DNA of 64,000 nt, from assembly GCA_964400685.1 (NCBI GenBank), contig CAYNVT010000002.1:25870-89869 (forward strand), written 5' to 3'. This stretch comes from an uncultured Bacteriovoracaceae bacterium (lineage in GTDB: Bacteria > Desulfobacterota > Desulfomonilia > UBA1062). Under the pieces are notes generated by a model. The model was not told the origin of the DNA. It ran no database searches and worked only from the letters and a program-made list of their open reading frames with translations. Positions 20,193-53,541 of this stretch are shown piece after piece (within the stretch, counting starts at the first letter, position 1; every line of letters starts with the position of its first letter). A program made the translations under genes and the position numbers.

Positions 20193-22004
20193 ATGGACGA
20201 GAATAGGACCGAAAATAAAGTGATGAATAGAAGATTAGATAAACTTGACGAATCTATGGTGTGCATGATGGTAGGTAGTGATCTAACCTATAGGGCTCAA
20301 GAAGGTCAGCTTAAACCCGTCATTGGCCGTAATGAGTCAGTCGATCATATTCTGGCACTGTTGTCTCGAAGGGGCATGAAGAATGTTATACTTACGGGGG
20401 ACCCCGGTGTTGGGAAAACAGTTCTAATCGAAGAAATCGCAAATCGGATTGCTAATGGTGATGTGCCGTCAACAATGTCAAAAGTTAGAATCATTCAGAC
20501 ATCTTTTTCCGAAATATGGGGTTATGTAGCAAATAGTGAAGATTGGGGAAAATATTTGAATACATTAAAGAAATTGTTGACCGAAATCCATGAAATGAAT
20601 GCCATTTTATTTATGGATGAAATTCATTCAATCTTTGGTCATCCATACAGCATGGCATATCTACGTCCATACCTTACCGAAGGGACATTGACTATTATCG
20701 GTGCAACTACTGACCATGAATATTATACATTTATAAATAAAGATCAAGCAACTGCAAGACGATTCGCTCATGTCCGAATCGAAGAAGCCAGTGAAACAAC
20801 TACAATCGCTATATTGGAAAAAGAATTATCCCAAATTGAATCCATATATGGATGTGGAATCGAGAATGAGGAAGTCATTAAATATCTTATAAAATTGAGC
20901 AACGCTTTCATTCCATACAGAAGTCAACCATCCAAAGCACTTGAAATTCTGGATCAAGTAGTTGTTTCCAAGTCAATCAGGAATGATACAAGTCCGATTG
21001 CGAAAGCTGATATACAGAAGGCCATAAGTCAAGCAGTCAATATACCCGAAGAGGCCATATCTGCACCGAAAGAGCGACTTGAAGCTATGGAGAATATACT
21101 AAATGCCCATATCCTGGGTCAGGAACAAGTTATTTCCAGGCTATGCAGGAGACTGTTGATATCAAAAGCTTCAGTTTGTGTAACGCCAGAACGTCCTGAT
21201 GGTGTCTTTATGCTGGCAGGTCCAACCGGGGTGGGAAAGACGGAATTGGCAAAGGCTCTTTCGACATACCTTACAGGAAGTGATAAAAATCTGATACGCT
21301 TGGACATGAGTGCTTTTTCTGGAGAGGAATCAATCTACTCGATCCTCGGTTATCCAGGGAAACAAGGTACTGATGATGTCCAGAACGTGCCCTTGCTGAC
21401 TCGCCAACTAAGAGCACAACCTTACTCGGTTCTGCTTTTAGATGAGATTGAAAAGGCACACAAAGTTGTGAGGTTGTTGTTCCTCCATGCATTCGATACA
21501 GGGAAGATGATTGATAACATAGGAAATGAAATCTTTCTTCGCAACACCGTTATTATTATGACGACAAACGTAGGTTTTTCGGTCAGGAAAGCAATCATAT
21601 CAATACCTGGACAAACTTTGGACAGGAATAATTTGGAATATGAGCATGCTGCAACGGAAAAAATAAAGGAAGAATTTCCTCAGGAATTTCTAGGTAGAAT
21701 TGATGATATCCTTTTCTTTAAACCGTTAACCAAAAATATTATGAACGGGTTTGTTGGGCAAAAGATACGCTGTTTGGAACAAATAACAGGCAAGAAATTG
21801 AATGCAACACAGAATGCAATCAAACTGATTTGCGAAAAAGGATTTCATCCTGAATATGGTGCTCGTGACTTGAATCGAGCCGTTGATGAGTTATTGGGTT
21901 ATAAACTGGCGCTTTTAAAGTTTTCTGTTGATTGGGATTCTATTTCAAGTATCAAAATTGATAGGTCAAAAACAAAGGATGAATTAAAATTAACAGCAAT
22001 ATAA
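20193..22004 (+). CDS. compact ClpA/ClpC-family AAA+ ATPase with two nucleotide-binding domains (603 aa)
   Basis: D1 Walker A GDPGVGKT. D2 Walker A GPTGVGKT. ClpP-docking tripeptide loop candidate TTNVGFSV. No large N-domain. Confidence 0.8.
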   Translation: MDENRTENKVMNRRLDKLDESMVCMMVGSDLTYRAQEGQLKPVIGRNESVDHILALLSRRGMKNVILTGDPGVGKTVLIEEIANRIANGDVPSTMSKVRIIQTSFSEIWGYVANSEDWGKYLNTLKKLLTEIHEMNAILFMDEIHSIFGHPYSMAYLRPYLTEGTLTIIGATTDHEYYTFINKDQATARRFAHVRIEEASETTTIAILEKELSQIESIYGCGIENEEVIKYLIKLSNAFIPYRSQPSKALEILDQVVVSKSIRNDTSPIAKADIQKAISQAVNIPEEAISAPKERLEAMENILNAHILGQEQVISRLCRRLLISKASVCVTPERPDGVFMLAGPTGVGKTELAKALSTYLTGSDKNLIRLDMSAFSGEESIYSILGYPGKQGTDDVQNVPLLTRQLRAQPYSVLLLDEIEKAHKVVRLLFLHAFDTGKMIDNIGNEIFLRNTVIIMTTNVGFSVRKAIISIPGQTLDRNNLEYEHAATEKIKEEFPQEFLGRIDDILFFKPLTKNIMNGFVGQKIRCLEQITGKKLNATQNAIKLICEKGFHPEYGARDLNRAVDELLGYKLALLKFSVDWDSISSIKIDRSKTKDELKLTAI

Positions 22005-22029
22005 TAGGCAAATAAGAGGAGATAAGTAT

Positions 22030-22563
22030 ATGAAATATGATGATATCAATCCGAAGAACATACTTTATAAGAATCGCATCCTTTTTCTTTCTGGTGATAT
22101 CAATCAGGAAAGGGCTTATGATATAATTCCAATGTTTATGGTTTTAGACAGCTTGGGTGAGGAACCGATAAAACTTTATGTTGACAGCCCCGGCGGCGAA
22201 ATGTCTGCCGGATTGGCAATTTACGATGCCATGCGATTTATAAAGGCGCCGGTTTACACAATATGCATCGGTCGAGCGGCTTCCATGGCAGCATGGATTC
22301 TTGCCGCAGGTGCAAAAGGAAACCGTATCGCTTCTGAAAATGCCCAGATAATGATACATCAGGGGCGTACTATGATGGGTGGTACATTTACCGATTTAAA
22401 AATCAGCATGAACGAATTTACCCGTATGGATCAACGTATGATAGATATTCTGTCAAAACATACAGGTCAAAGCCAGGATAACATTGCCAGAGCGCTTGAA
22501 CGGGATTGCTGGATGACCCCCAAGGAGGCAAAAGAATTTGGTATCATTGACTCAATTGTGTAA
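22030..22563 (+). CDS. clpP: ClpP-family serine protease
   Basis: GRAASMAAWIL (catalytic Ser), IMIHQG (His), ERDCWMTPKEAKEFGIIDSIV (Asp). RBS GAGGAGAtaagtatATG. Confidence 0.8.
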   Translation: MKYDDINPKNILYKNRILFLSGDINQERAYDIIPMFMVLDSLGEEPIKLYVDSPGGEMSAGLAIYDAMRFIKAPVYTICIGRAASMAAWILAAGAKGNRIASENAQIMIHQGRTMMGGTFTDLKISMNEFTRMDQRMIDILSKHTGQSQDNIARALERDCWMTPKEAKEFGIIDSIV

Positions 22564-27071: not shown

Positions 27072-27072
27072 A

Positions 27073-27834: not shown

Positions 27835-27843
27835 CGGAGCTAT

Positions 27844-29160: not shown

Positions 29161-29177
29161 AAATAAGAGGTGTAGCA

Positions 29178-34114: not shown

Positions 34115-34918
34115 TTGATGAGACTGGTCCTTGTAGATAACAATGTCTCTGTAACAAAATCTTTACAGCTTTATTTCAGGAATGTCTTCTATGAGCAGTT
34201 GCTGGTCTATCCGGATGTTCATCAGGAACCGCCTAAGGATGGCGATTCAATAGTCCTTAGAGAGCCGGTAGAGATATATAATGCCCATTATTCGATATAT
34301 TCACAATGGTGCTCATATGCTCTTAAACAGGGCCTTAACCTGCGTATAATAATACTTACAACTGAAGGAGTTGACCAGCTTGAACGAAACCCCTTTTGCA
34401 TCAATATTATTGATTTAAGCAAAACATTACGGGAAAAATTCCAGACAATTTTTTCTTATCCAGCAAAGCCGGATACAACTATTCCTGATAAATCAAATTT
34501 TGACGACATAATTATTCGGCTAAAGACATTTTTCAAGGGGCATGGTGAAGGCAGCCTGATTAAAAACCTCAATGACATCTATCAGGATGTCAGTATGGCA
34601 CCTGTACTGGTTGCGCAAGGCGACAATTCGGTGGAAGAATGCATTGATAAATTAATCCTTAAATGGGCTAAACCAAGATGGGAGATATTCAAGGAACGGT
34701 ATCATAAATATCTTATTTATTTCCGTTATCTTCCATATTATACCGACATATTACTTCTTGCGGAAAATTTTCATACGATTGACAGCTATTTTACAAATAT
34801 ACCGCGGGACGAAAAGGAATTTATCCATACAGATATGAGACCCCCCTTTTTAAAAATACTCAAGACATTGGATGACATTGACAGACTTTATATTAAAAGC
34901 GAGGGGCCAATAAAATAA
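34115..34918 (+). CDS. hypothetical protein (267 aa)
   Basis: Starts 3 nt after the previous stop. Its stop overlaps the start of the sigma54 activator gene (TAATG). Confidence 0.5.
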   Translation: MMRLVLVDNNVSVTKSLQLYFRNVFYEQLLVYPDVHQEPPKDGDSIVLREPVEIYNAHYSIYSQWCSYALKQGLNLRIIILTTEGVDQLERNPFCINIIDLSKTLREKFQTIFSYPAKPDTTIPDKSNFDDIIIRLKTFFKGHGEGSLIKNLNDIYQDVSMAPVLVAQGDNSVEECIDKLILKWAKPRWEIFKERYHKYLIYFRYLPYYTDILLLAENFHTIDSYFTNIPRDEKEFIHTDMRPPFLKILKTLDDIDRLYIKSEGPIK

Positions 34919-36333
34919 TGGCAATTAAAGTTCTTATCATAGACGATGACCCTGCATTCATTGAAAGGGTGAAATTCGGCCTGAAACCCTTCAGATTTAT
35001 CCCGGTTTCCAACATACAGATGGCAAAAGAAATGATTGACGATACCATTGATGTTGTTATGCTTGACCTGAATCTCGACCCCTCCACGGATACAATGGAA
35101 GGCCTCGAATTACTTGACTACCTGAAGAAGGAATACCCTCATATACCTGTAACCGTAATAACAGGCTATGGAAACATTGATGTTGCTGTTGATGCCATGA
35201 AAAGAGGTGCAGACGATTTTCTCAAGAAAAGGGACATGGATATAATCGAATGGCGGAAACGAATTGAAATTTTGGCAAAAACAAAACAGTTGAAGGAACA
35301 GGTTGCAGATTATGAACATGAAAAATATCAGTTTATCGGGAATACACCTGAGATTATCGACATAAAGAAGCACCTTCGAACTATTGGAAATTATCCGGAC
35401 ATTACAGTATTGATTAGAGGTGAAACCGGGGTTGGAAAAGAAGTTGCTGCAAAATACCTGCACAGTCACAGTCCGAGATGCAACAAACCTTTTGTGGTTG
35501 TTAACATCAGTTCTTTTCAACCATCTTTGCTTGAAAGCGCCTTGTTCGGTCATCGTAAGGGCTCTTTTACCGGTGCGGACAGGGACCGTCTTGGCTTTTT
35601 CCGCAAAGCAGATGGAGGTGTGCTGTTTCTTGACGAGATCGGTGATCTGTCTCTCGAAGCCCAGGGAAAGATTCTCCGGTTCCTTCAAGACAGGACCATC
35701 AATATCGTTGGGGAAGAAACAGATCTGTATATAGACGTGCAGGTCATTGCAGCGACAAACAAAAACCTTGAGAGTCTTATCGTTGAGGGAACATTCAGGG
35801 AAGACCTTTATTATAGGATAAAAAACTATACCGTTCTTATTCCTCCTTTAAGACATCGTACTGAAGATATCCCTCCTCTTATAAATCATTTCGCCACAAA
35901 GTTAGATTCAAACAAGGAATCAGGAAAACTTAGTAAGAAAGCCCTTGAAATCCTTATGAACTATGCATGGCCTGGAAATATCCGGGAATTAAAGAATACC
36001 ATAGATTATGCGTTAATAAAAAGTGGCCAGCAATGCATTGAACCTTGCCACCTTCCTGCTGATATAATTAGTTTACCAAAGACTCAGAAAGCGCTTTACG
36101 ATCCAGATATCGAATTTCCACTCGACATTGAAGAAAGGGCGAAAGTTCTCCAGCTAACCCTTATTGATCGGGCTCTCGAAGTTACTTTCGGCAATAAAAG
36201 CAAGACAGCAGAGTTTCTGAACCTCGACCTGGACAAGTTGATGTATAAAATCAAATCTAACCATACAATGATACTGAATGGACCATATGAAAGTATAAAA
36301 ATGTATTATAAAAGTCTTTTCGTTGAAAAATGA
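34918..36333 (+). CDS. sigma-54-dependent transcriptional activator (NtrC family: REC + AAA+ + HTH)
   Basis: REC VLIIDDDPAF ... VVMLDLNL. AAA+ GETGVGKEVAAKYLH, GAF-less ESALFGH, GSFTGA, GGVLFLDEIGDL, RFLQDRT. Confidence 0.8.
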   Translation: MAIKVLIIDDDPAFIERVKFGLKPFRFIPVSNIQMAKEMIDDTIDVVMLDLNLDPSTDTMEGLELLDYLKKEYPHIPVTVITGYGNIDVAVDAMKRGADDFLKKRDMDIIEWRKRIEILAKTKQLKEQVADYEHEKYQFIGNTPEIIDIKKHLRTIGNYPDITVLIRGETGVGKEVAAKYLHSHSPRCNKPFVVVNISSFQPSLLESALFGHRKGSFTGADRDRLGFFRKADGGVLFLDEIGDLSLEAQGKILRFLQDRTINIVGEETDLYIDVQVIAATNKNLESLIVEGTFREDLYYRIKNYTVLIPPLRHRTEDIPPLINHFATKLDSNKESGKLSKKALEILMNYAWPGNIRELKNTIDYALIKSGQQCIEPCHLPADIISLPKTQKALYDPDIEFPLDIEERAKVLQLTLIDRALEVTFGNKSKTAEFLNLDLDKLMYKIKSNHTMILNGPYESIKMYYKSLFVEK

Positions 36334-36363
36334 TTCTTATTTTTGTTAATAAAAGGGGCGTTT

Positions 36364-39012
36364 ATGATTAAAACAATAGATTTCATGGGAAATAATGATT
36401 TATACGAAGCGATATCAGCATACTGCAAATTCAAATCTGAAGGTATTGAACTGATAAAATTAAGCAATATAGACAATACCACGAATAATGTATTGATTGT
36501 TGATCTTCATGATAAGGAAATTGTCAAGTCATTGGGTAAGCATTTAACGAGAACCGGTTCAGAAGAAATCCCTTTCATTGTAATTGTGGGGTTGGAGGAC
36601 AATCTGAATGATTATGATAAGTACATTAATAACCCAATTATTGATGACTTGTCCCCCATCCGACTGATGACACATGCCTGCGGGAAAAGATATTTCAAAT
36701 ACTTCAGCCTGCCGGCTCAAATTTCAGCACTCATATCATTTATCCTTCATGACAAAAAACCATTAAAGAACCCTTTTAAGCATCTTTCCGAAATGGTTAA
36801 TGACTTGCCAACAACAATTAAAGATCCTTTCGAAGATTTCATTATAGAAACAGGAAGATTTACCGACCCTGATTACAGAAGAATGAAGAGAATGAAGGTA
36901 TTTCATGATGACCCAGATAGGCCGAAACATGAGATGCAGTATTATGATTATGTCATCGCTTACCTCAAGTATCAGAGTTCATTAAAAAACGAACCCTTCA
37001 ACATACTGGTTATCGATAATAAACCTGGTGGTGTTAGAATTAAAAGTACAGATGAATCAAATAAACCAGATGATAGTATTATTAAAGGTATAAATAAATC
37101 ACTTCGGGATGCCCTGAAGGACATCGAGAATATATTCAAAGGTTATAAATTCTGGTTAGTTGAAGAAAAAAAGCATTTCAGCGATTTAAAGAATCACCTC
37201 ACTAATTTCCTTCAAGAAAAAAATAGTAAGGATCATGCAATCAATGAAAGGGCAATATTAAGCAAGATTAAGAATACCAGCGGTGAAGATGAGGACAGCA
37301 AACCTTGCAGATTCAATGATATTGATCTCATCCTGATTGATCTCTTTTTAGAAGAGGATGACATGAGCGGTATAGATTTTCTTCATCTGTTCACCCTCCT
37401 TTATCCACAGATCCCGGCCTTTATTCTTAGTAACAGTGAAGACCCTGAGATGATCACAAAAACCATAAAAGAGAAGGCTGATAACTATATTCTTAAAAAA
37501 TGCATCTACTCAATGCCGTTTATTTATTACGATTATATAGAACAGCTCGGAAGACTGGTGGACTACATTGAAGACAAAGACCTGAAGAGAAATCTAATTG
37601 GCAACCTTCGTTACTGGCGATTTAAGAAAGAATTCATCTGGTTTGGTGACAAATGCTACCATATGATCAATCATTCTTTTAATCACACAAATAACAACTG
37701 GCTGTTAGCAAATCAGATTTTACCTCATATCATTGATTATATCGAGCAATCTGAACAGCAATTTTATGATGAAGACATCTATGTCCTAAGTATGGCCATC
37801 TGGTTGCATGACTTGGGTCATAAAGGCAACGAACATTATGGTGAACCCCATGAGATTAGAGATCTCCACGGACTGATCAGCGGGGAGATAATTATGAAAC
37901 ACCCCGAATCATACGGCATTTTCGGGTATAGTGAACAAGAAGGATGTTCATGTGTGTCTCCCTATAGATGGGCATCATTCAGTCACCATAAAACAGCATT
38001 AGAGAGTATAAGAGAGCGTCTGGCAAATATTATGAGTTCATGTTGCATGATGACAAATGTCAATGAAACCACTGATATTAATAGAATATATAAACAGGTA
38101 CGCCGGTTGACTATTCTTGAAAAGATTGCCCTGTTATGCATTTTCCACAAAAGCAACTTTCCATTGGATGAAAAAGATATTCTTCAATTCGGACAGAAGG
38201 GAAAGCGGATACCTCTAGATTGCTATATCAATAATGATCAGACAACAAGTCCTATTCACTTAAAAAGTCTCACAGATATCTTGATTGATGATAATTTCAT
38301 TCGTCTTATGGCCCTCTTCAGATTCATAGATGGTCTGGACATTAATGAAAATCGTGTCGGCGATGGCACTGAGGAGGCAGTGAAGAAAGAAACCATTTTT
38401 AGGGATATTGAATATCAGAAGCTTAAGCTGAAAAGAGAGGTTGAAAGCTTGATAGAAATCAATCTAAGAGAGTCAAATCTTGAAAAGAGGTTTTTTAATC
38501 TCTTCTACGAGAGACCTGTCCAGGATCTTGAGAAAAACACCTGGATAAGTGATGACCTGAAAAAAGAACAGCGTCTGTTTCTTGATACACTGCGGATTAA
38601 CCTGCCACTTGAGAATTATTATACATTATTGGAATACATTGAATTTTTATCAGTTCAAGATGGTCATTTTGGATTGCACAACAGCATTATCAGTGTCGAT
38701 ATTCAACCCATGGTATTACCTGTCGCAAAAGACGGACTTCCATGTTTTAAGGTCAGTTACAAATCATCCAAGAGGAAAGAACAGCTTGAATCTGATGATA
38801 TAAAAGTAAAGATAAGAGGGGAAAAAGATGGAAAATCCATACGAAACCATCTGCTTGGTTTTAAAGATAAAGAAAAGATTGAAGAAGGTTATGTAAGGAA
38901 AGAACTTAACAATGGGAAAATATATTTAAAAGAATGGTTCGAAATAGATTCAACAGAAATTATTATAAAGACCAAAGATGATAAAACTGAAGAAGAAACA
39001 AGAAAAAAATAA
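36364..39012 (+). CDS. large REC-like + HD-domain phosphohydrolase protein (~882 aa)
   Basis: Receiver-like segment DIDLILIDLFLEEDDMSGIDFLHLF. HD motif H-x(n)-HD in NHSFNHT ... AIWLHDLGHKG. No GYP motif seen. Confidence 0.6.
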   Translation: MIKTIDFMGNNDLYEAISAYCKFKSEGIELIKLSNIDNTTNNVLIVDLHDKEIVKSLGKHLTRTGSEEIPFIVIVGLEDNLNDYDKYINNPIIDDLSPIRLMTHACGKRYFKYFSLPAQISALISFILHDKKPLKNPFKHLSEMVNDLPTTIKDPFEDFIIETGRFTDPDYRRMKRMKVFHDDPDRPKHEMQYYDYVIAYLKYQSSLKNEPFNILVIDNKPGGVRIKSTDESNKPDDSIIKGINKSLRDALKDIENIFKGYKFWLVEEKKHFSDLKNHLTNFLQEKNSKDHAINERAILSKIKNTSGEDEDSKPCRFNDIDLILIDLFLEEDDMSGIDFLHLFTLLYPQIPAFILSNSEDPEMITKTIKEKADNYILKKCIYSMPFIYYDYIEQLGRLVDYIEDKDLKRNLIGNLRYWRFKKEFIWFGDKCYHMINHSFNHTNNNWLLANQILPHIIDYIEQSEQQFYDEDIYVLSMAIWLHDLGHKGNEHYGEPHEIRDLHGLISGEIIMKHPESYGIFGYSEQEGCSCVSPYRWASFSHHKTALESIRERLANIMSSCCMMTNVNETTDINRIYKQVRRLTILEKIALLCIFHKSNFPLDEKDILQFGQKGKRIPLDCYINNDQTTSPIHLKSLTDILIDDNFIRLMALFRFIDGLDINENRVGDGTEEAVKKETIFRDIEYQKLKLKREVESLIEINLRESNLEKRFFNLFYERPVQDLEKNTWISDDLKKEQRLFLDTLRINLPLENYYTLLEYIEFLSVQDGHFGLHNSIISVDIQPMVLPVAKDGLPCFKVSYKSSKRKEQLESDDIKVKIRGEKDGKSIRNHLLGFKDKEKIEEGYVRKELNNGKIYLKEWFEIDSTEIIIKTKDDKTEEETRKK

Positions 39013-39105: not shown

Positions 39106-40164
39106 TCATTTTAACCTGCCAAGAAAACGATTTTTAAACGATTTGCCATTTACAGATAAGACGACGGAAACATGTGGTTTCCTTTTGCATACATCGACAT
39201 CTTGCAATAAGGATATGTCGCTCGCGCCCGATTTCGATTTGTTTAATCTTGCATAAGCATCTTTATAAAGCGAATTGTGCCAGGGATTACGCGGACGACG
39301 GTCAATTATTGTCTGACCCAAGGCGATGCCAGGCTCAGTAACAACATCAACTTGATAGGTATCTTGTTTTGTAATCAAATCATCCCAGATGGCCAGGCCT
39401 ACAGCCAGGGGATCATGCAGATAGCAGCCGTTAAAACTTTCGTTTCTGTGATAGAAATCCATATACATCTGGCAAATGTCCCAGGTAAAATTGCTATTCC
39501 CACTTTTGTTCTTAAGGGTGTGCAACTCACTTCGAGTCAGTGGGCATTGCATGCAGGCATCGAGACCGACAACCGTCATTGGGACACCGAAATTAAGGAC
39601 TTCAGCTGCGGCATCGGGATCACAGAATGCATTGAATTCAGCGACCGGTGAAATGTTGCCGTGCTTCTCATAAGCACCGCCCATCCAGATTATTCGTTTG
39701 ACGCGTCTAACCGCCTCCGGATCTTTACTTATGGCAAGGGCGATGTTTGTCAAGGGGGCTGTGGCAACAATCGTGAGGTTCTGCAAGGGGAGTGATCGTA
39801 GGGTTTCCAGGATCAGATCAACGGCCGATTGCTTATCTATTTTATCCGAAGATGGATTCGGATATTTCGCTGAAACATCACCTAGTCCATCGGGACCATG
39901 GATTCCGCCCGCACGAAACGGGCTCCGTTTAACCGGACGCCATGCCCCCATTGCAACAGGCGGTAATGGTTTTCTTTGGACCTGTTCAAGCGTTTTTATG
40001 GCGTTCAGGGCACATTGCTCAACACCTACATTCCCACCGCAAACGGTGATCGCCTTAACGTCTATTTCCGGTGATTTCATTGCAAGCATTATAGCCAGAG
40101 CGTCATCAACGCCTGGGTCCATGTCAAGAAGTATGGGGTGAGATTTAGATGCCGTCTTTTTCAT
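39106..40164 (-). CDS. inosine-uridine-preferring nucleoside hydrolase family protein with C-terminal extension
   Basis: N-terminal ILLDMDPGVDDALAIMLA (DxDxxxDD Ca-binding signature of IUNH). Confidence 0.75.
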   Translation of the reverse strand: MKKTASKSHPILLDMDPGVDDALAIMLAMKSPEIDVKAITVCGGNVGVEQCALNAIKTLEQVQRKPLPPVAMGAWRPVKRSPFRAGGIHGPDGLGDVSAKYPNPSSDKIDKQSAVDLILETLRSLPLQNLTIVATAPLTNIALAISKDPEAVRRVKRIIWMGGAYEKHGNISPVAEFNAFCDPDAAAEVLNFGVPMTVVGLDACMQCPLTRSELHTLKNKSGNSNFTWDICQMYMDFYHRNESFNGCYLHDPLAVGLAIWDDLITKQDTYQVDVVTEPGIALGQTIIDRRPRNPWHNSLYKDAYARLNKSKSGASDISLLQDVDVCKRKPHVSVVLSVNGKSFKNRFLGRLK

Positions 40165-41533
40165 AAGTGCCTTCCTTGCTCTTTAAGTATGTTATAGCTC
40201 TTTCATATTTGGATACTGAGGAAACAGACAGTTCTTTATCCAGACTGCTCAGAAGTTCTGCAATGATGACGATATCTTCTCGTATCATACCCTTACTTTC
40301 TATTTCAATCTCCACATCGGCTCCGATTCGCCTATCATTGATATCATTAAAATACACGTGATCTACACAGACCTCCGCCTGCTGATTTTGCTTGTTGTTA
40401 ATTGTAATAGAAACACGATTGGTGTTAATTTTAACAGCTCTTACAAGAGATTTGCAGTCCGGGGCCAGATAACTGATAAGGCGGCAGGGAAGGGCAGAAA
40501 TGCGCTCTCCTTTTTCGAGTAACTCTTTTTCTTTAATTGAGATAGGAGCTTCTTCTTCCGATCGGCTATACCACATTCCTTTCTCATTGGATGTTGTGTT
40601 TTGAACTTTTGTTTTGAGTGTTATTTGAACATAATCTTTTTTCTCGCGTAAACGAAATGACATTCCTGCATTGAAAAGACAAAAATTGATGTCATCGAAA
40701 TAGGTATCCTTCTGTAAAACTGGTTTGGTTTCCGCAATAATCCCCATATCTAAAGATAATAATCCCTTCCGGCATGCCAAAATCAATTTCTCAAAATCCT
40801 TATCGTTCATGTTTGACCGTAATAGCTTACACTCAATATCGTAAGGAGAAGGGGACTTTTCCGGCGGTTGCGGGATTGTCGATAAATATCTATCCACTAT
40901 TTCATTATATTTTTTTATATAGGGATGAACTGTGTTACGCCTACCTGCTGCATGTTCGAGCTCAGGCAAAGTCCAATAATTTTTACCATGGAAATCATTT
41001 TCCGGATATACAACAGTTTTAATGGTCCCATTTTCGGCATTCCATCTTACCCAATGAAAATGATCTGGGTCGATACCGTTTTTAGTCAGGGGATGAATTC
41101 TGTGATATTGGACTTTTGATTCAACGCCATTGACCTTTTTAATCTTTTCAAATTGTCTGGCAAACAGAGGACTGTGGGAATAATCAGGACGAGGTATGAT
41201 GTAGTATAAATTAGGATTGATGTCTTCTTCCGCTGACAGATTTGAAACCACCATAGTAGGTGTTAAAATAGTATCTATAATATGAATTACACCGCCATCA
41301 TATCGAAAGGAGTATCCATTCATATAGAAGAAAATATCCTGGCAAGAAATAAGAATTCCAAAAGAGTCCTTATTCATAGTCATGCGCCAGTCATCTGGCA
41401 AATACTCGTTTATGTCAGCGACGATACGGACAAACAGTTCAACTGATAATCCTCCACCACGTTCTTTGTGCCTGGCGATAGGATGAATATCTTCAGGATG
41501 TTCTTTATCTTGTGTACGGGAAAAGACAAGCAT
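40145..41533 (-). CDS. two-domain protein: unknown N-terminal domain + C-terminal CYTH (triphosphate tunnel metalloenzyme)-like domain
   Basis: C-terminal half has IAETKPVLQKDTYFDD ... FRLRE ... ITLKTK ... ADVEIEIES, matching the CYTH ExK/RLR/TxK/EIEIE pattern. Overlaps the hydrolase gene by 20 nt. Confidence 0.6.
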   Translation of the reverse strand: MLVFSRTQDKEHPEDIHPIARHKERGGGLSVELFVRIVADINEYLPDDWRMTMNKDSFGILISCQDIFFYMNGYSFRYDGGVIHIIDTILTPTMVVSNLSAEEDINPNLYYIIPRPDYSHSPLFARQFEKIKKVNGVESKVQYHRIHPLTKNGIDPDHFHWVRWNAENGTIKTVVYPENDFHGKNYWTLPELEHAAGRRNTVHPYIKKYNEIVDRYLSTIPQPPEKSPSPYDIECKLLRSNMNDKDFEKLILACRKGLLSLDMGIIAETKPVLQKDTYFDDINFCLFNAGMSFRLREKKDYVQITLKTKVQNTTSNEKGMWYSRSEEEAPISIKEKELLEKGERISALPCRLISYLAPDCKSLVRAVKINTNRVSITINNKQNQQAEVCVDHVYFNDINDRRIGADVEIEIESKGMIREDIVIIAELLSSLDKELSVSSVSKYERAITYLKSKEGTYEKDGI

Positions 41534-41976: not shown

Positions 41977-43215
41977 ATGACTTTTATTAGTGATAGCACC
42001 CTGGATAAACCTAAAATCATAGAGGCTGTTAGTGTATTTATACAGCCCCTTCAACTTGAAAGTCCCGATTCTCTTAATGATTATAAATGGTCCAAAATCA
42101 ATGAAAACGGATTTGACGATGATGATATAAGAATTGTTCAGTTAAAAGAATGGCAGGAAGAAATCATTGAGTATGGAACTATTAAAATTCAGGCGAGATT
42201 ATTACCGAAAATAGGTTGGATAAAAAAATGTGAATGGGTGGCGCTCATTATTGAAGCCCATTTGAACATAACAGATAATGATCTATATATTGATGATCTG
42301 CTTTCGTTTAACGTTGGATTTCGTAAATCAAGAGGTTTACCGGTCCCTGATAATAGCCATTTCGAAATGAATATAAATAATTATCTTCTCTCAAATGGAA
42401 AGCCCTGTTCAGATATTTATAAAAGATATGCTGATGAGATATTTGGAATGAACAAATATAAACCACTTTTAAACCTTCAAAAATCAGTCATACTTTCTCT
42501 TGGACGATTTGATCGTATTTTAACGGATAAAGACCTTTATCGTTTTGGCAGTGTTGCCTATCCCCATGAGCAAATTTCGGATGAATGGGTCAATACTGCA
42601 AGAGAGAACATGGTTGATCGCTGGATAAAAACAGGTTGGCGTTGCTTCGCTTATTCATACAGTATGGTTTATGCTCTCAACGAGTCATATCCAGGTAGAT
42701 TAGATGATAAAATCAGAGGTAACTTTCTAGATAAGTATGTAAGAACTGGTGTAACAATTGCTTTGCATAGGGCTATGCTTCAAGAATTGCCCCTGAAGCT
42801 TAAACAGGCAGAGAGCTTGGCCGAAATGCGTAAATGCCATCAGGAAATGGCAAGAATCAATAACTATGTTGGAGTCCGATGGACTTCTGAGGGTACACAG
42901 AATACAAAAATTGAACAGATATGGCGCAAGGCTACAGGCATTGAAGACAGAATGAACGAAGTAAAGCTGTTGCTGGAAGAGAAGATTGATGTTTATGAGG
43001 CTCAGGAGGCAGATAGATTAAATAATGGAATTTTCATATTACAAATAATCTTTGGTGCATTCTATGGAGCACAAATTGGCCTGGCATTGGGATCGGATTT
43101 TGTCCATTTGATTTTGGGTATGGTGATTGGACTTGTATTGATATTTATATTTATTTGGTTAGAAAAACGAATAAAGATTTTAGAGCGAATCAAGAAAATG
43201 AGTATTTTTAAATAA
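41977..43215 (+). CDS. hypothetical protein with C-terminal double TM anchor (412 aa)
   Basis: RBS AGAAGGGttaattATG. C-terminal hydrophobic helices IFILQIIFGAFYGAQIGLALG and LILGMVIGLVLIFIFIWL. Confidence 0.55.
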   Translation: MTFISDSTLDKPKIIEAVSVFIQPLQLESPDSLNDYKWSKINENGFDDDDIRIVQLKEWQEEIIEYGTIKIQARLLPKIGWIKKCEWVALIIEAHLNITDNDLYIDDLLSFNVGFRKSRGLPVPDNSHFEMNINNYLLSNGKPCSDIYKRYADEIFGMNKYKPLLNLQKSVILSLGRFDRILTDKDLYRFGSVAYPHEQISDEWVNTARENMVDRWIKTGWRCFAYSYSMVYALNESYPGRLDDKIRGNFLDKYVRTGVTIALHRAMLQELPLKLKQAESLAEMRKCHQEMARINNYVGVRWTSEGTQNTKIEQIWRKATGIEDRMNEVKLLLEEKIDVYEAQEADRLNNGIFILQIIFGAFYGAQIGLALGSDFVHLILGMVIGLVLIFIFIWLEKRIKILERIKKMSIFK

Positions 43216-43497: not shown

Positions 43498-45633
43498 ATG
43501 AACAAAAAAAAATATTACTTACTTATTATCTTACTATTGATTTTTCTAATCCCTCTTTTTGCCAGCTGTAAACAGAAAGTAGATGAAGTTAGAACAACGA
43601 AAGAAACTATAAATATTCAAAAGGTAAAAGCCATTGATGGGATTGATTTATATTTGCTCATTGATGAATCTGGAAGTATGAGCGGTCAAATGGGTACAGA
43701 TAAGGCCGGACTGCGATTCGATGCCGGAAAATATCTGATCCAGAACCTTCTTGTAAAAAATAGTGATCCAGAGAATCCTAATCGAGTGGCTGTTATTCAT
43801 TTCGGAGATGATGCAACTTCAAAAGGATTGATTGATCTTACTCTTGGTGGTGTAAAGGATCTGGCAGTGGCTGTTGATAGCGACAGCAAGATAAATATGG
43901 GGGATACAAGTTTTTTGAGAGCTCTTGAAAAGGTTGTGTTATTAGATTCATCAGCCCCTGAATGCAAGAATGTAAGGAATAAGATCATCGTCATTTTTAC
44001 TGATGGTGAACCCGATGATGCAAGACATCTGGCCTCCATCCAGAAGTATTTCAATGAGATCCAGTTATACTTTAAAGAAAAAATGAAGGGATTTTCACTC
44101 TATGTTATTGGCATTGACAATCAATCATCTCGAATCAAGTTTTCCGATACCATGCCGGAATGGAAGAAAGTTGCAGGCGATAACAACGTTCATGTCCTTA
44201 GGGATGTAAAAGATCTATATACAAAATTCAACCAGACGATCCAACAGATATTCGAGTTGCCACAAATAGAACGTGTTACTGTAACTAAATCTGAAGATTT
44301 TGAAGTACAGCCTTATCTGGACAAGGTTGAATTCCACATTTTCACAGAATCAAATATAAAACTTGGTATCCGAAGACCTGATGGAAAACTTGTGAATGTA
44401 AAAGATAATGGTGTTTCACAGAAAACAGTAGGCCGGTATTCAATTCTAACCATTAATAGTCCTGAACCAGGTCTATGGAAGTATGAAATACTTGAAGGAA
44501 CAGGAAGCGTTAATATCTTGAGGAACCCAATACCTTTCAGGCTACAACTGGAATATCCTCCGAGCGTATATCCTGTAGGAAAACCGCTCATGATTCGTGC
44601 TCAATTTACCAAGGCGAATGGAGAAGAGGTTAAAGAGTTACCTGATTATCCACTTTCATTTACTGCGAAGGTTACATCACCGGATTATCCCAATTATGAT
44701 GAAGATGTTCAATTCCTTCCCAAAAACAAAATAAACAAAACTTATTATGCAAGTTTACCTGTGAAAATTGAGAAACCAGGTGAATATCATATTAAGTTGA
44801 AAGTAAAAGGCGGAACGCGTTTTGAGACTTCAAATACGCAAAAGATTTTTGTTCAATCATATCCGTACTTCAGCTTTTCCATTCCAGAACCACTCAATAC
44901 ATATCCTCTGTGTAAGAGTATGAAGATTGAGGCGACAATCAGACGTGGGAAAGAGATATCTGATCCAAAGAAAGAGTATCAAGATAACCCCAATGATCTT
45001 GTCCTTGTTCAGATCGTTTCATCTTCAAATAACCAGTCTTCTCCTGCTGTGTGGCTTAATTATGAAGGCAAGGGGAAGTACAGCTCAATTATCCCATTTG
45101 AATTGAAAGAAGGTAATTATACTTTTGCTGCAAAGGTTAAAGGAGAACCTAGGTTAGCAGACAAAATGATACCAACTGAACAGATTGAGGACTTTGATTT
45201 CTTCGTTTCTCCTACGGGAGGTCAGCTTACAAGTTCTATTGCTAAGATGGCTGGTATGATAATTTTAACCATTCTTATCATCTGGAGTATCTGGATTGTA
45301 ATATGGTTAAATATATTTACGAAAAAATTTTCCGGATATTTAAATGTATCTATCGGAGATGAACAATATATTGAAGGATACCAGGAATTCAAGTGGCTAA
45401 GACCAATAACAGCAGATATTAGCGGTGTGATAAGTGATGAGGATTCCAGAAAAAAGAGTAAAAAGAAAATATCATTCTGGGTCAAGGCAAAAGGTGAAGA
45501 TACAGTTTGTGTATATATAGGCGGGTGGGTTTCATTATTCCTTATGGGGATTATTTCGAAGAAATCATCAGTTTCAAAAGATGATGGAAATAGTGAACTT
45601 GGAGAATATATTGCGATTAAGATAAGTCAATAA
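43498..45633 (+). CDS. exported von Willebrand factor A (vWA) domain protein with C-terminal TM anchor (711 aa)
   Basis: RBS ACAGGAGGttcttaaaATG. Signal/lipobox LIPLFASC. MIDAS DxSxS in DLYLLIDESGSMSG. C-terminal TM MAGMIILTILIIWSIWIVIWL. Confidence 0.75.
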   Translation: MNKKKYYLLIILLLIFLIPLFASCKQKVDEVRTTKETINIQKVKAIDGIDLYLLIDESGSMSGQMGTDKAGLRFDAGKYLIQNLLVKNSDPENPNRVAVIHFGDDATSKGLIDLTLGGVKDLAVAVDSDSKINMGDTSFLRALEKVVLLDSSAPECKNVRNKIIVIFTDGEPDDARHLASIQKYFNEIQLYFKEKMKGFSLYVIGIDNQSSRIKFSDTMPEWKKVAGDNNVHVLRDVKDLYTKFNQTIQQIFELPQIERVTVTKSEDFEVQPYLDKVEFHIFTESNIKLGIRRPDGKLVNVKDNGVSQKTVGRYSILTINSPEPGLWKYEILEGTGSVNILRNPIPFRLQLEYPPSVYPVGKPLMIRAQFTKANGEEVKELPDYPLSFTAKVTSPDYPNYDEDVQFLPKNKINKTYYASLPVKIEKPGEYHIKLKVKGGTRFETSNTQKIFVQSYPYFSFSIPEPLNTYPLCKSMKIEATIRRGKEISDPKKEYQDNPNDLVLVQIVSSSNNQSSPAVWLNYEGKGKYSSIIPFELKEGNYTFAAKVKGEPRLADKMIPTEQIEDFDFFVSPTGGQLTSSIAKMAGMIILTILIIWSIWIVIWLNIFTKKFSGYLNVSIGDEQYIEGYQEFKWLRPITADISGVISDEDSRKKSKKKISFWVKAKGEDTVCVYIGGWVSLFLMGIISKKSSVSKDDGNSELGEYIAIKISQ

Positions 45634-45664: not shown

Positions 45665-48600
45665 ATGGCAAGTGCATTCTTAGTGGTTGGTGTTGGTGGA
45701 TGCGGTCGTGGGGTCTGTACTCACATTAAACATGATATTGAGCAGGAATTTGGTTCTCTTGAAGCAGCAAAGATTAAAATATTAGTTATTGATGGTCCTG
45801 ATAAGGACGATGTTTATGCACTTCCAGGCGGTTTTGAAATTGATACCGGAAAAGATTCACCAGAGTTTTATCGAACTATGATAACGCCAGCACCTGTTAT
45901 AAAAAATATTGCAGGGGGCAGAATCAGTTCCAATGAAGCTTATATAGCTCAATGGTTATCTCAAAAAGCAGCTGAAAAAATTCCCACAGATTCAATAGAT
46001 CCAACAACAGGTTTTGGCGGGCATAGATCACCGGGACATGCTTACTTTTATCTTGATGTAGGTAATATCAAAACCAGGTTAGTTAGAGAATACGATATTG
46101 CTAGAAAATTACTTGGTGGTTCGGAAAAATCATCGAATCAGGTTATTATAGTTGTTGTCGGTTCACAGTCTGGAGGCACCGGTGCAGGTCTTCTTTTTGA
46201 TGTTATGCATTTATTGAGAGATATTGCATTGCAGAACCATGATATGGTTATGAGCTTTCTACCTTTGGCGAACACATATCATAACCTGCCTTCCAGTCCA
46301 GGGCAGATGGCGAATCACAATGCACAGAATTTTGCTGGTCTATTGAATCTGATGCGTTTCATGACTACAACAAACAATTTCCCTACCATTATCAAGTACA
46401 GTGATATGGTTGAAGTACATAATGCACGCATTGCCGACATACCGTTTGTTATTGATGGAAATGTGCCCAATGCAAAGTTTAATGATGTGCCCCCACGGCT
46501 TGGTGTTGTTCCGGTAATTGCAGATTTTCTCCTAACAATTATTAAAGATAATATCAGGACATCAGTTCTTCAGCCACGTATTACTGACTGGGCACAAAAA
46601 AATATAGGAGCAGCTGAGTATCCAGAGAAGTATGCTGCTTTGGGGGCAACCTCAATCCGTTATTCCCATAAAGATATCCTGCAAACATTTTCATATCGGT
46701 TTACAGTAGCACTCTACGATCTAATTCTGAATCCAATTGGGACAGAGTTTGATAAGGGAAAGATCATCGCAAACAGTATCCTTAACCAGATAACCTTTAC
46801 TCAGATGGTTGAAAACCCTCAATCTACTTCTCTGGAACCGCCATCACCACCTAAGTTCAGCCCTGAGTTCAGGACGTTAGGTTCGCGTATCCGAACAGGA
46901 AATCCCGGTGAACAACCTTTCCCCTATCCGGCGAAACCTTTTACTGAACAGATTGATTATGGACATAGTGTTACGCGGCTTGGAGGGTTACGTGAGAAAG
47001 TAGATGTCAAGAATGATGCAATTAAGCTTAAGGAGAATTTAAAGCTACGGTTAGAAACCTGGATAATGAATCAACACGAAAAAATCGTGACTAGAGTGGT
47101 TAAAGATATTGAAGATCAAATGAATGATGTTTTTTATGTAAAACAAGGAGAACATCTTGTCCCCAGGACTCTACAGGATTCACCAAGTTCTATTATCATT
47201 GCCAGGGATTTACTTAAGTATTTATTGGAAAAGCTGGAGAATTATCAAGGGCATTTATCGTCTGAGTTTAATAATCTTATGTATCCGAACGGACCTGAAA
47301 AGAACAGCATCATTGCTGAGCATCTGCTTAAGTTGAATGATGCTGAAACGAAAATGATTAAAAGAAGTAGTTCTGAGACTCAGAAGAAATATCTTGAAGT
47401 GATGCAAAAGCATTTTAACCTTGAAGTATGGGATATTCTTGTTCAAGGTTCTCAATCTATTACGAGTGATATAATAAAGCGGGTTAATAGCCTATGGAAT
47501 CTCATTGGTGAAGGGGCGGATGGTTGGATCACAATCCTAAGGAAGTATCGGGATCTGATTAACGGAATGTACCAGGGAGATCTTGAAAGACGTCGTGGCT
47601 TTGATAAGATGCGTTTAAGGAGATACGTGCCTAATACTGGGAGCGAAGCGGAAGACCGGCTTTTTGAAGAAGTTGCCGTTCCGGTTTTGAATTCATTGAA
47701 ACCAAAGGTTTATTGGACCTTTGCTATAGACTCACAGATTCCTGGCAAGTATGAGATTCTGATTAACTCCCCTTCAGTTCCCAACTATGATAACAAAAAA
47801 TCAATCAACGATCTTCGAGATGTAATAACAGGGAAGAAATTGGAAGATGTTCATTATTATAATCCCTTCAGTCATTGTCAGTATGCAATCAACGAGATCG
47901 GTGGACCGCTTGATAACAAAACTGTCTGGGACATACTTGAAATTGAATGTAATGAGTGCTGGTGTAAGGATCAAAGGATACCACCTGATAGACGAAATTC
48001 AGATGCTTTTGCTTTATATCTTGCTGAGGATTTCTTGAAACGGTCTGATGTGGCACTTGATTATAGAAATGCAGATAACCTTTTGAAACAGGATTACACG
48101 ATATGTTATCTTCCAGGAGATATAGGTAGTGTAGGTGGAAAATTCATTAAGGAGTTGGAAAATAAAGACTGTCAGATTTCATCACATCAGGGTCTTTCAA
48201 AAGAAGTGAGAAGAGTGAATCTGCACTTTAGAATACCTATCAAACAGTGGGGTTATTATGGACAGGCCCAAACAGATTACGTGAAATATATAGACAGCAA
48301 AGTGCCCAAAATACTTATTGATATATATCCACAGGAACAGAATGCAAACCGGATCAGAAAATATATTGAATCTAGGATTGACTATTCCTTCACCCAGGTT
48401 ATAGAAACATCTGTTTCATCTTTATTATATGATTATAATATTTTTCAAAAAGCAGCTCTCTGTTACGTTATGGGCCTGATCCCTACGGTGGCAGGCGCTG
48501 AAGCGATTTCACCAAAGAGGTATTCTCTGTCATTAAACGCAGGATCAATGGACTTGGGAGAAGAGTGGGATATTTATACGCTTATGAATAACATTAACCG

Positions 48601-48862
48601 GCCGGAAAGAGAAATGACAGATAAGCATTGGCAATCAAACATAGATGTACATGATGAAATTACCTCCATCTGGAACATATTCTTACAAGGACGTGTACAA
48701 AATCTATCTGGATTGGCAGTGGATTTAAAGGCACAAGTTAAAAATATTCAGCTGCCTTCTCCACCAACAGGACAAACTGACTCAATTGACCCACAAGGCA
48801 AACAACATTTAACATTGGCCATCAGGGCTGTCGTAGAAGAATATGCGGAGCTGCTACAATGA
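45665..48862 (+). CDS. giant tubulin/FtsZ-superfamily GTPase-like protein (1065 aa)
   Basis: RBS AAAGGAGGatcaaggtATG. N-terminal G-box FLVVGVGGCGRGV (compare FtsZ GVGGGG). T4 tubulin signature VVVGSQSGGTGAGLLFD (GGGTGSG-like). Long C-terminal extension of unknown fold. Confidence 0.6.
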   Translation: MASAFLVVGVGGCGRGVCTHIKHDIEQEFGSLEAAKIKILVIDGPDKDDVYALPGGFEIDTGKDSPEFYRTMITPAPVIKNIAGGRISSNEAYIAQWLSQKAAEKIPTDSIDPTTGFGGHRSPGHAYFYLDVGNIKTRLVREYDIARKLLGGSEKSSNQVIIVVVGSQSGGTGAGLLFDVMHLLRDIALQNHDMVMSFLPLANTYHNLPSSPGQMANHNAQNFAGLLNLMRFMTTTNNFPTIIKYSDMVEVHNARIADIPFVIDGNVPNAKFNDVPPRLGVVPVIADFLLTIIKDNIRTSVLQPRITDWAQKNIGAAEYPEKYAALGATSIRYSHKDILQTFSYRFTVALYDLILNPIGTEFDKGKIIANSILNQITFTQMVENPQSTSLEPPSPPKFSPEFRTLGSRIRTGNPGEQPFPYPAKPFTEQIDYGHSVTRLGGLREKVDVKNDAIKLKENLKLRLETWIMNQHEKIVTRVVKDIEDQMNDVFYVKQGEHLVPRTLQDSPSSIIIARDLLKYLLEKLENYQGHLSSEFNNLMYPNGPEKNSIIAEHLLKLNDAETKMIKRSSSETQKKYLEVMQKHFNLEVWDILVQGSQSITSDIIKRVNSLWNLIGEGADGWITILRKYRDLINGMYQGDLERRRGFDKMRLRRYVPNTGSEAEDRLFEEVAVPVLNSLKPKVYWTFAIDSQIPGKYEILINSPSVPNYDNKKSINDLRDVITGKKLEDVHYYNPFSHCQYAINEIGGPLDNKTVWDILEIECNECWCKDQRIPPDRRNSDAFALYLAEDFLKRSDVALDYRNADNLLKQDYTICYLPGDIGSVGGKFIKELENKDCQISSHQGLSKEVRRVNLHFRIPIKQWGYYGQAQTDYVKYIDSKVPKILIDIYPQEQNANRIRKYIESRIDYSFTQVIETSVSSLLYDYNIFQKAALCYVMGLIPTVAGAEAISPKRYSLSLNAGSMDLGEEWDIYTLMNNINRPEREMTDKHWQSNIDVHDEITSIWNIFLQGRVQNLSGLAVDLKAQVKNIQLPSPPTGQTDSIDPQGKQHLTLAIRAVVEEYAELLQ

Positions 48863-53115: not shown

Positions 53116-53287
53116 AAAAAATCAAATTCATGTCAGCGAGTAGCGCATTGATAGCAGGCAGCCCGCGGCGCCGCATCATCACTGCTCGGGATAGGGCTCA
53201 ATTCCTCCGCCTCAAGCGTCAACTAATTGAGAATAACAGATGAAGTGTCTAGCGACATCCGAAAAAACTAATCTAATTCAGTTATTA

Positions 53288-53515
53288 TGTCGATATCTGC
53301 ATTGCATATCGACATACTATGCAGATATTATAAGGTTCTCTAAAAATATAGTTCACTGTGACTTGAAAATTCATTTCGTAAACCACATGCTATAACCGCA
53401 AGGGATATTTATCTAAATTTATCAAAATGAATTTGTAATTTTGTATCCTTTTCTGCCGACGCTATGCAAAACATAATAATATTACACGACGCCATGCACA
53501 GTGTTCTTTTTCAAC
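53288..53515 (+). repeat. intergenic repeat family, copy A (long form)
   Basis: Shares the ATCGACATACTATGCAGATATTA ... TTTGTATCC ... CCGACGCTATGC ... CACGACGCCATGCAC ... CTTTTTCAAC backbone with copies B-D. Begins with a 9-bp inverted repeat TGTCGATAT-N9-ATATCGACA. Confidence 0.7.
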
Positions 53516-53541
53516 TAGACGCATTATAGATCAAATATACC

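Follow-up and report, generated by a model that had tools for sequence, protein, structure and literature searches.

Two overlapping genes on the minus strand of a 64,000-nucleotide stretch of DNA from an uncultured Bacteriovoracaceae bacterium (the whole stretch is referred to as the window) form a module of three parts: a structurally orphan N-terminal domain (NTD), a CYTH domain of the triphosphate tunnel metalloenzyme (TTM) type fused to it, and an interchangeable N-ribosidase, which in the window is an IU-type nucleoside hydrolase (NH). This three-part combination is new, and it is recurrently linked to type III-B CRISPR-Cas and to vWA/FtsZ-like-1 operons via an HD-CE phosphohydrolase in which CARF and REC domains are swapped. 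We tentatively favor, at somewhat less than even confidence, its being an accessory nucleotide-catabolic effector module, which would start from a nucleoside triphosphate (NTP) or inorganic triphosphate and, by way of a nucleoside, end in a free base that is probably a pyrimidine. The pair is organized as follows.

40145..41533, minus strand: NTD–CYTH gene, 462 aa (list of open reading frames, ORFs)
40850..41533, minus strand: NTD, residues 1-228 of the 462-aa protein, beta-rich and uncharacterized (motif conservation)
40145..40849, minus strand: CYTH (TTM) domain, residues 229-462 plus the stop codon (Pfam, residue conservation, Foldseek)
39106..40164, minus strand: IU-type NH gene, 352 aa (Pfam IU_nuc_hydro)

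The two ORFs share 20 nt (40145-40164), the overlap given in a preliminary description of the locus, and the ATG of the NH gene has a Shine-Dalgarno site of its own, AAGGAAGG, 5-6 nt upstream. Considering the overlap and this site, coupling is plausible, and the NH gene appears to be translationally coupled to the NTD–CYTH gene. The preliminary description had predicted a 462-aa CYTH fusion with ExK, RLR, TxK and EIEIE motifs and had staked the prediction on the CYTH profile. The C-terminal region passes PF01928 (residues 267-446, E=2.3e-11, 44.3 bits against a Pfam cut-off of 23.2), and the ORF, the conserved motifs and the fold all agree with it. The motifs E234-x-K236, R294-L-R296, T305-L-K307, E408-I-E410-I-E412 and K442-Y-E-R are present, and among 33-37 homologues the tunnel residues D232-I-E234-C-K236, R294/R296, K307, E326-E328, R373, D391, E408/E410/E412 and K442 are invariant or at least 90% conserved; in the window protein, Asp (D232) replaces the first Glu of ExExK. 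An AlphaFold (AF2) model of the whole protein reached a predicted local distance difference test (pLDDT) score of 86 and a predicted template modeling (pTM) score of 0.80, with pLDDT above 90 over most of residues 230-450. There is no PDB match to the CYTH domain at the sequence level. By Foldseek, its model has the eight-stranded antiparallel beta-barrel tunnel fold and matches YgiF (5a60, E=1e-10), followed by SaTTM, BH2851, AtTTM3, ThTPase and CyaB (range 1e-10 to 1e-6), so that inorganic triphosphatases and NTPases are its nearest structural relatives. Judging from its residues, the CYTH domain is predicted to be catalytically intact.

The NTD is the best-conserved part of the protein, its conservation exceeding that of the CYTH domain. 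It carries the motifs INxYLPDDWR, PNLY, SPLFARQYEK, QYHRIHPLxK and YHGKDYW, and N42, P46, W49, R50, N108, R126, Q127, H144, R145, H147, W164 and W187 are invariant or nearly so. The preliminary description had remarked in passing that this domain of about 230 aa lacks a known family, and we found the same: residues 1-228 have no Pfam, NCBIfam or PADLOC match and no PDB sequence match even at E<=10 with a 52-sequence profile. Modeled alone, the NTD gave a pLDDT of 84 and a pTM of 0.82; the model has no fold relative in PDB or BFVD, and neither profile nor fold revealed a CARF or SAVED match. That it might be a degenerate second CYTH domain was rejected, because hhalign gave a probability of 0.35% against the CYTH alignment. 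The family is small (69 clusters in a 5.8-billion-protein search), and the NTD is carried by only 52 clusters at 50% identity (1.84 billion representatives). Among 185,579 species genomes, 13 contain it, patchily distributed over at least seven phyla (Desulfobacterota, Nitrospirota, Nitrospinota, Margulisbacteria, Hydrogenedentes, Firmicutes and Pseudomonadota). A phage origin was discarded, since there were no relatives among 2.9 million viral contigs. The only fusion partners of the NTD are CYTH, or CYTH and NH, and a stand-alone NTD also occurs next to NH without any CYTH (loci L060 and L061). On its sequence and model, the NTD is best described as a new domain and the defining element of the module. 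Being compact, free of structural relatives and endowed with a cluster of invariant His, Arg and Trp residues, it would lend itself well to structure determination and to screening for ligands. The stand-alone NTDs of the vWA/Tubulin_2-type loci (L060:9917-10657 and L061:9968-10717) have a CxxC zinc-ribbon-like insertion (KCPKCGQ) in a variable loop, and a further insertion after the HRVHPL motif.

The NH proposed earlier from its DxDxxxDD signature proved to match IU_nuc_hydro (PF01156) over its full length (Pfam, residues 11-344, E=2.8e-87, 293.6 bits), and it keeps the Ca-binding DxDxxxDD (DMDPGVDD, residues 14-21), AEFN and the catalytic-His motif LHDP; its set of catalytic residues is complete. 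The AEFN and LHDP motifs, which contain the ribose-binding Glu/Asn pair and the catalytic His-Asp of group I NHs, align with those of 6zk1 and 4kpo. The nearest solved enzymes are pyrimidine/uridine and IU nucleoside hydrolases (range 1e-40 to 1e-51; 6zk1, 4e-51; 1mas, 7e-48), and the highest scores of the module NHs are with RihA and UriH, which are pyrimidine/uridine hydrolases, and with the plant NRHs. Scores of 202, 197 and 192 bits against the RihA, RihC and UriH equivalogs of NCBIfam fall below the respective cut-offs of 382, 433 and 450, and we assign the protein to the IU-NH superfamily, not to a named RihA, RihC or UriH equivalog. An extension of about 40 aa at the C-terminus had also been claimed; the extra residues are real, but they amount to some 25-35 and form a clade-specific stretch near the C-terminus, between RNPWHN and the last conserved segment. 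This stretch is common to about 31 close stand-alone homologues of 339-369 aa (96-100% query coverage), a clade that shares contigs with NTD–CYTH genes, and more distant NHs align over only about 80% of the window NH. In L065:1-11053, an NH 76% identical to that of the window follows genes for a ClpA-like protein, a rhomboid protease, vWA, Tubulin_2 and an NYN nuclease, with no NTD–CYTH within 10 kb of it, which places the NH clade in the vWA/FtsZ-like-1 system in its own right. In L063:6994-11035, part of an 8.2-Mb genome, the NH gene adjoins a xanthine/uracil-type permease gene and is grouped with genes for a methyltransferase and a small AAA_28 P-loop protein; the group lies next to REC-DUF87 and REC-containing giant proteins, at a distance of about 20 kb from NTD–CYTH.

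To follow the pair across genomes, 67 related loci were fetched, which collapse to 54 groups at 90% identity, and were analyzed with ORF, BLAST and HMM scripts. The conservation of the gene pair, which the preliminary description had left to later checking, was evident in the following arrangements.

13 of the 54 groups: single NTD–CYTH–NH polypeptide of 720-870 aa (e.g., L003, L012, L027, L044)
6 groups: NTD–CYTH with a separate NH within about 1 kb (e.g., the window, L066, L067)
3 groups: stand-alone NTD of 228-250 aa with NH nearby (e.g., L060, where NH is adjacent; L059, which also has a CYTH–NH fusion)
2 groups: same-clade NH elsewhere on the contig, at a distance of 15.6 or about 20 kb (L062, L063)
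3 groups: adjacent uridine phosphorylase (Udp) in place of NH (L011, L018, L050)

The closest relatives of the window pair, L066 and L067, both have a separate adjacent NH; the L066 genes overlap by 38 nt and the L067 genes are 41 nt apart. When only groups with at least 10 kb of sequence are considered, NH or Udp is present in 17 of 27. The three Udp genes (L011:9660-10436, L018:8463-9197 and L050:11575-12342) adjoin NTD–CYTH in loci that have no NH, score above the NCBIfam equivalog cut-off (344 bits against 262), and in two of the three loci sit between the module and cas10. The repeated NTD–CYTH–NH fusion and the swapping of NH for Udp argue that the pair is functionally coupled: comparative evidence for a shared pathway can hardly be stronger than fusion together with non-orthologous replacement by a different enzyme that cleaves N-ribosyl bonds.

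The HD-CE protein accompanies the module more often than any other partner, in 13 of the 54 locus groups. Its family (c3) comprises only 41 clusters, which share contigs with NH and NTD–CYTH genes; in L062 the HD-CE and NH genes share 4 nt, and in L054, L056, L060 and L061 the HD-CE gene stands immediately before the NTD gene. Outside the window, HD-CE genes lie at the following positions.

L018:14613-16811: HD-CE gene
L027:16986-19073: HD-CE gene
L062:11562-13781: HD-CE gene
L062:7599-10004: HD-CE gene

HD-CE comes in two homologous forms, CARF (Cas_APE2256)+HD-CE directly after cmr genes, and REC+HD-CE behind a sigma-54 response regulator. L062 carries both, 1.5 kb apart. CARF was found solely in the HD-CE partner of CRISPR-linked loci, not in NTD–CYTH–NH itself. 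The exchange looks like a rewiring of one putative effector from cyclic-oligoadenylate to phosphorylation input, and it suggests that one output machinery can take its input from either cyclic-oligoadenylate or two-component signaling.

The module recurrently adjoins cas10/cmr genes in unrelated genomes. Type III-B cmr2/cas10, cmr3-6 or a Cas10-palm protein lies beside it in eight groups (L001, from Desulfonema limicola; L007/L062; L011; L015; L018; L027; L037; and L066). In the Cas10 proteins linked to the module, the palm carries a GGDE motif and an HD nuclease domain is absent, which points to a dependence on ancillary effectors. In L037, a CRISPR array stands directly upstream of NTD–CYTH.

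L037:4171-5032: CRISPR array, 37-nt repeat GTGAAAAAGGCAGACCGGATTATTGCGGGATTGAAAC

CRISPR-like arrays with a period of 73-75 nt were seen in L037 and, as two short ones, at L049:11546-11883 and L029:15028-15212.

Another recurring context, vWA with the FtsZ-like-1 tubulin, was found in 12 loci. The gene order of the window (sigma-54 response regulator, REC+HD-CE, NTD module, vWA, FtsZ-like-1/Tubulin_2) is common to L054, L060 and L061 and partly to L050 and L021. In an FtsK/HerA-like type, the order is Tubulin_2, FtsK/HerA-like ATPase, NTD–CYTH–NH fusion, ClpA-like ATPase, ClpP and PP2C (L003, L032, L040 and others), and further contexts are of an AAA/radical-SAM/ABC-transporter type and a MoxR-vWA type, MoxR-vWA genes flanking the module in L033, L041 and L051. 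This genomic company fits a dedicated nucleotide-processing module of conflict or signaling systems better than housekeeping salvage.

How the parts could act together is suggested by the chemistry of their families. TTM enzymes act on triphosphates, and IU-NH and Udp act on nucleosides, not nucleotides; since this is so, a path from NTP to free base would be the simplest they could share. The module would then assist, or act as effector in, conflict systems driven by NTPases or signals, be they type III-B CRISPR-Cas or the vWA/FtsZ-like-1, MoxR-vWA, FtsK-like and Clp-like systems. In a first step an NTP would lose its phosphates, with CYTH hydrolyzing either the NTP itself or inorganic triphosphate freed by HD-CE. 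In a second step, NH would irreversibly cleave the ribonucleoside to base and ribose or, where NH is missing, Udp would yield base and ribose-1-phosphate. The substrate is probably a pyrimidine ribonucleoside, most likely uridine, considering the substitution by Udp, the RihA/UriH-like scores of the NHs and the xanthine/uracil-type permease of L063. The NTD might contribute substrate recognition, regulation or extra catalysis, possibly the missing phosphatase step. In a variant of this scheme, HD-CE would produce nucleoside and inorganic triphosphate, and CYTH together with NH or Udp would consume both, making the reaction irreversible. That variant finds no sequence support, because the sole match of HD-CE to a SAMHD1/EF1143-type triphosphohydrolase had E=0.98, and the module also occurs in loci with no HD-CE within 10 kb. 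In the window, activation would come from two-component signaling, not from cyclic oligoadenylate, given that Cas10 is absent and that HD-CE has REC instead of CARF and stands behind a sigma-54 regulator. The toxin-like module for nucleotide degradation, signal degradation or salvage that had been suggested earlier thus survives in its conserved coupling and its conflict context; our results do not distinguish among these three roles, all of which that suggestion had offered, and toxicity is hypothetical.

Several observations weigh against the nucleotide-catabolic effector module. Neither NH nor Udp lies within 10 kb in about 10 of the 27 well-covered loci, and in L054, L060 and L061 the NTD has no CYTH within 10 kb, indicating that the three parts are not an obligate chain. 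Established enzymology holds IU-NH and Udp to nucleosides, and no TTM enzyme is known to free a nucleoside from an NTP, so that an extra phosphatase step, by the NTD or HD-CE, must be assumed. In the NTD, no fold typical of a sensor or a catalyst is recognizable. Three of eight HD-CE members show weak similarity to cyclic-nucleotide phosphodiesterases (PDEase_I), which would suit signaling as well, and the ABC transporters, B12-radical-SAM enzymes, methyltransferases and asparagine-synthase-like gene of the clusters could mean small-molecule metabolism. Finally, the 64-kb window contains no cas family, no CRISPR array or tandem repeat and no Cmr-like profile match.

A bolder form of the proposal, which we consider doubtful, is that NTD–CYTH–NH with CARF/REC-HD-CE makes up an unrecognized class of immune effectors, in which the NTD would represent a novel fold for ligand sensing or catalysis and ribonucleoside triphosphates, probably UTP and CTP, would be broken down to base, ribose and phosphate. 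The trigger would be type III-B signaling or, in the window, a two-component/sigma-54 input feeding the vWA/FtsZ-like-1 machine. If true, this would be the first defense by depletion of pyrimidine ribonucleotides and the first immune role of a triphosphate-tunnel enzyme.

Alternatively, the module could be an on/off switch for a second messenger, a possibility that we take seriously and still hold to be unlikely. CYTH would be a class-IV-type cyclase or a triphosphatase acting on a 5'-triphosphorylated signal (e.g., a linear Cas10 product), HD-CE a phosphodiesterase, and the NTD the signal-binding part, with NH or Udp destroying the nucleoside and thereby clearing the signal irreversibly; the arrangement would be analogous to that of CorA with NrN or SAM-lyase in type III systems that signal by SAM-AMP. 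Class IV adenylate cyclases do belong to CYTH and are among the fold matches, HD-CE has its weak PDEase_I resemblance, and the partner Cas10 proteins retain the palm GGDE and lack HD. The known cyclic oligoadenylate and SAM-AMP signals, however, have no triphosphate, we detected no ring-nuclease-like fold in the NTD, and a replacement by Udp is ill-suited to the adenine-based signals of type III systems. Many module loci moreover have neither Cas10 nor a recognizable cyclase. Four loci (L001, L011, L013 and L059) have a further, stand-alone CYTH gene besides the module, and CARF-linked CYTH proteins near CRISPR loci have been noted (Altae-Tran et al. 2023, PMC10910872), both in keeping with such a switch. 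So is the presence of membrane proteins beside the module, namely a CorA-like candidate in the window, although this call is weak and not conserved, and the c27 protein of L001, L011 and L013. The latter (L001:10144-11946, with homologues in L011 and L013) is a 600-aa multi-transmembrane protein with a soluble C-terminal domain and no family match; its gene follows the stand-alone 208-aa CYTH gene, between NTD–CYTH and cas10, and it is a candidate membrane effector.

Quite improbable, in our view, is a mere clean-up or salvage of by-products without effector or signaling role, in which CYTH would remove inorganic triphosphate and NH or Udp would recycle nucleosides released by neighboring enzymes such as the HD phosphohydrolase, radical-SAM and SAM-dependent enzymes, or nucleases. 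Such a role would agree with the recurrence of radical-SAM, methyltransferase, aminotransferase, asparagine-synthase-like and ABC-transporter genes in the clusters, with inorganic triphosphatases being the best fold matches of CYTH, with the 35-40% identity of the NH to ordinary salvage hydrolases and with the nucleobase permease next to the NH of L063. But housekeeping salvage needs no rare, highly conserved extra domain fused to both enzymes, and neither the rarity and patchiness of the family nor its adjacency to cmr/cas10 and a CRISPR array would be expected. In addition, Udp is of the uridine type, not of the MTA/SAH- or 5'-deoxyadenosine-nucleosidase type expected for SAM by-products. 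That the freed base or a ribose derivative itself is a second messenger for the vWA/tubulin or CRISPR-linked system, from a substrate prepared by NTD–CYTH, is highly improbable: base release by nucleoside-phosphorylase-type domains has been proposed to generate signals in MoxR-vWA conflict systems (Kaur et al. 2020, PMC7159879), and MoxR-vWA genes flank the module in three loci, but no receptor for the product is identifiable, and metabolites as abundant as uracil and ribose would be ill-suited as signals.

Compared with known systems, both enzyme domains of the module are, by their sequences, ordinary superfamily members. CYTH shares with the TTM enzymes (YgiF, SaTTM, AtTTM3, ThTPase, CyaB) the charged tunnel residues (ExK, RxR, K, EEE, ExExE, KYER), the fold and the Pfam family; it differs in its fusion to a novel 228-aa NTD, instead of CHAD or nothing, and often to NH. 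With the IU-type NHs (RihA/RihB/RihC, UriH, plant NRH1/3, Crithidia IU-NH), the module NH has in common the full-length PF01156 match and the DxDxxxDD, AEFN and LHDP motifs, whereas it belongs to a clade of its own, numbering about 31 proteins and marked by an additional segment in the C-terminal region, scores below equivalog cut-offs, and is fused to or embedded with NTD–CYTH beside HD-CE, vWA/FtsZ-like-1 and cmr genes, not in salvage operons. The ancillary nucleotide-signaling modules of type III systems include CARF/SAVED effectors, ring nucleases, CorA with NrN or SAM-lyase (SAM-AMP), and the CARF adenosine deaminase Cad1. Our module resembles them in its adjacency to cmr/cas10, a CARF-HD protein, some membrane proteins and its nucleotide/nucleoside enzymes, but NTD–CYTH–NH lacks CARF and SAVED and also serves CRISPR-less systems, that of the window included. 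Defense effectors that deplete nucleotides include dGTPase and dCTP deaminase, the ATP nucleosidases of Detocs and CBASS Cap17, and SAMHD1-type HD triphosphohydrolases. The proposed likeness to these is the irreversible destruction of a pool by a phosphohydrolase combined with N-glycosidic cleavage, an HD phosphohydrolase being the commonest partner; the families of the module are different (TTM with IU-NH or Udp), and its putative substrates are ribonucleosides, probably pyrimidines.

In full-text searches of the literature, we found no combination of CYTH and nucleoside hydrolase in a prokaryotic system, and CYTH or NH in type III CRISPR accessory roles only in the legend of PMC10910872. The operon type combining vWA and FtsZ-like-1 (Tubulin_2) was described by Makarova and Koonin 2010 (PMC2875224), and the window resembles it in that vWA (43498-45633) is directly followed by Tubulin_2 (45665-48862), with PP2C and transmembrane proteins nearby. 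Altae-Tran et al. report vWA/tubulin/phosphatase systems near CRISPR loci, with CARF-linked CYTH proteins appearing in a figure legend. Neither PMC2875224 nor PMC10910872 describes NTD–CYTH, NH or REC/CARF-HD-CE as parts of these systems, and Kaur et al. mention neither CYTH nor NH. Should the module prove to be an effector or a signal-control unit, the accessory biology of type III CRISPR would gain a new kind of enzyme logic, combining a triphosphate-tunnel enzyme with an N-ribosidase and a conserved orphan domain, as well as a mechanistic link to the vWA/FtsZ-like-1 'membrane-remodelling' operons, enigmatic since 2010.

Within the window, the pair is one component of a larger conserved gene ensemble that spans most of the sequence. 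The window thus has counterparts of nearly all the partner families seen in related loci. Positions 1-49000 are mostly occupied by this one ensemble, and homologues of its genes also occur with the module at other loci, where their order is rearranged: PP2C, HerA/FtsK-like ATPase, ClpA-like/ClpP, a small REC protein, a Liv-type ABC transporter, B12-radical SAM, the sigma-54 response regulator, REC-HD-CE, vWA and Tubulin_2. The neighboring genes are the following.

1..624, plus strand: PP2C-type phosphatase cut by the window edge, 47% identical to an L032 gene (cluster c7)
5878..9093, plus strand: HerA/FtsK-like (DUF87) ATPase, 1071 aa (Pfam DUF87), matching cluster c6 in 8 loci
14148-16859: TPR + CHAT (caspase-like protease) protein, 903 aa, typical of conflict systems
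20193..22563, plus strand: ClpA/B-like double-AAA ATPase (603 aa) and ClpP-like protease (177 aa) (Pfam)
24323-30278: ABC transporter and B12-radical SAM genes
34918..36333, plus strand: sigma-54-dependent response regulator (REC-AAA+-HTH_8; Pfam), directly upstream of the REC-HD-CE gene
36343..39012, plus strand: REC + HD-CE phosphohydrolase, 889 aa, cluster c3 (Pfam Response_reg and HD-CE), convergent with the NH gene
41977..43215, plus strand: 412-aa protein with two C-terminal transmembrane helices, divergent from the pair, weak CorA-like candidate
43498..45633, plus strand: vWA-domain membrane protein, 711 aa, cluster c11 (Pfam VWA)
45665..48862, plus strand: FtsZ-like-1/Tubulin_2 protein, 1065 aa, cluster c13 (Pfam Tubulin_2, E=1.5e-25)

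The order of sigma-54 regulator and REC-HD-CE gene recurs in L054, L060, L061, L062 and L064. The vWA gene also adjoins the module in L060, L061, L054, L050 and L021, and its proximity to the Tubulin_2 gene is conserved in related loci. The ClpA-like and ClpP-like proteins of the window are 58% and 69% identical to neighbors of the module in L028 and L049, and in 12 related locus groups the module has homologues of the two as immediate neighbors. A homologue of the HerA/FtsK-like ATPase is encoded two genes upstream of NTD–CYTH–NH fusions, and PP2C homologues (Pfam PP2C) downstream of them. The CHAT-TPR protein has no counterpart in the related loci.

The 412-aa neighbor of the pair matches the PADLOC profile of CRISPR-associated CorA weakly (E=1.2e-4, 19 bits) and contains an FYGAQ segment reminiscent of the YGMN loop of CorA. 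It has no Pfam, NCBIfam or PDB support and is absent from all related loci; its identity as CorA is kept as a weak lead only. Window proteins of 990, 250 and 267 aa were rejected as divergent Cas10/Cmr subunits (hhalign, at most 0.5% each), as was cluster c42, whose 10.9% against Cmr5 is not significant.

The orientation of the pair is opposite to that in related loci. An invertible segment was dismissed as the cause, because we found only short, imperfect inverted repeats within coding sequence. The 443-bp divergent intergenic region yielded no sigma-54 promoter match with at most two mismatches, the window-wide count being below chance, and no riboswitch or other known RNA was found upstream of the operon. 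Further downstream, at 52402-54816 and 58486-59793, are genes for a 237-aa protein consisting of a DnaB C-terminal helicase domain only and for two AAA_14/DUF4143 ATPases, which may be cargo of a mobile element or defense island. From 60000 to 64000, the GC content is 0.48-0.50, against about 0.38 elsewhere; this segment, which holds minus-strand ORFs of 941 and 242 aa, may mark the edge of an island.

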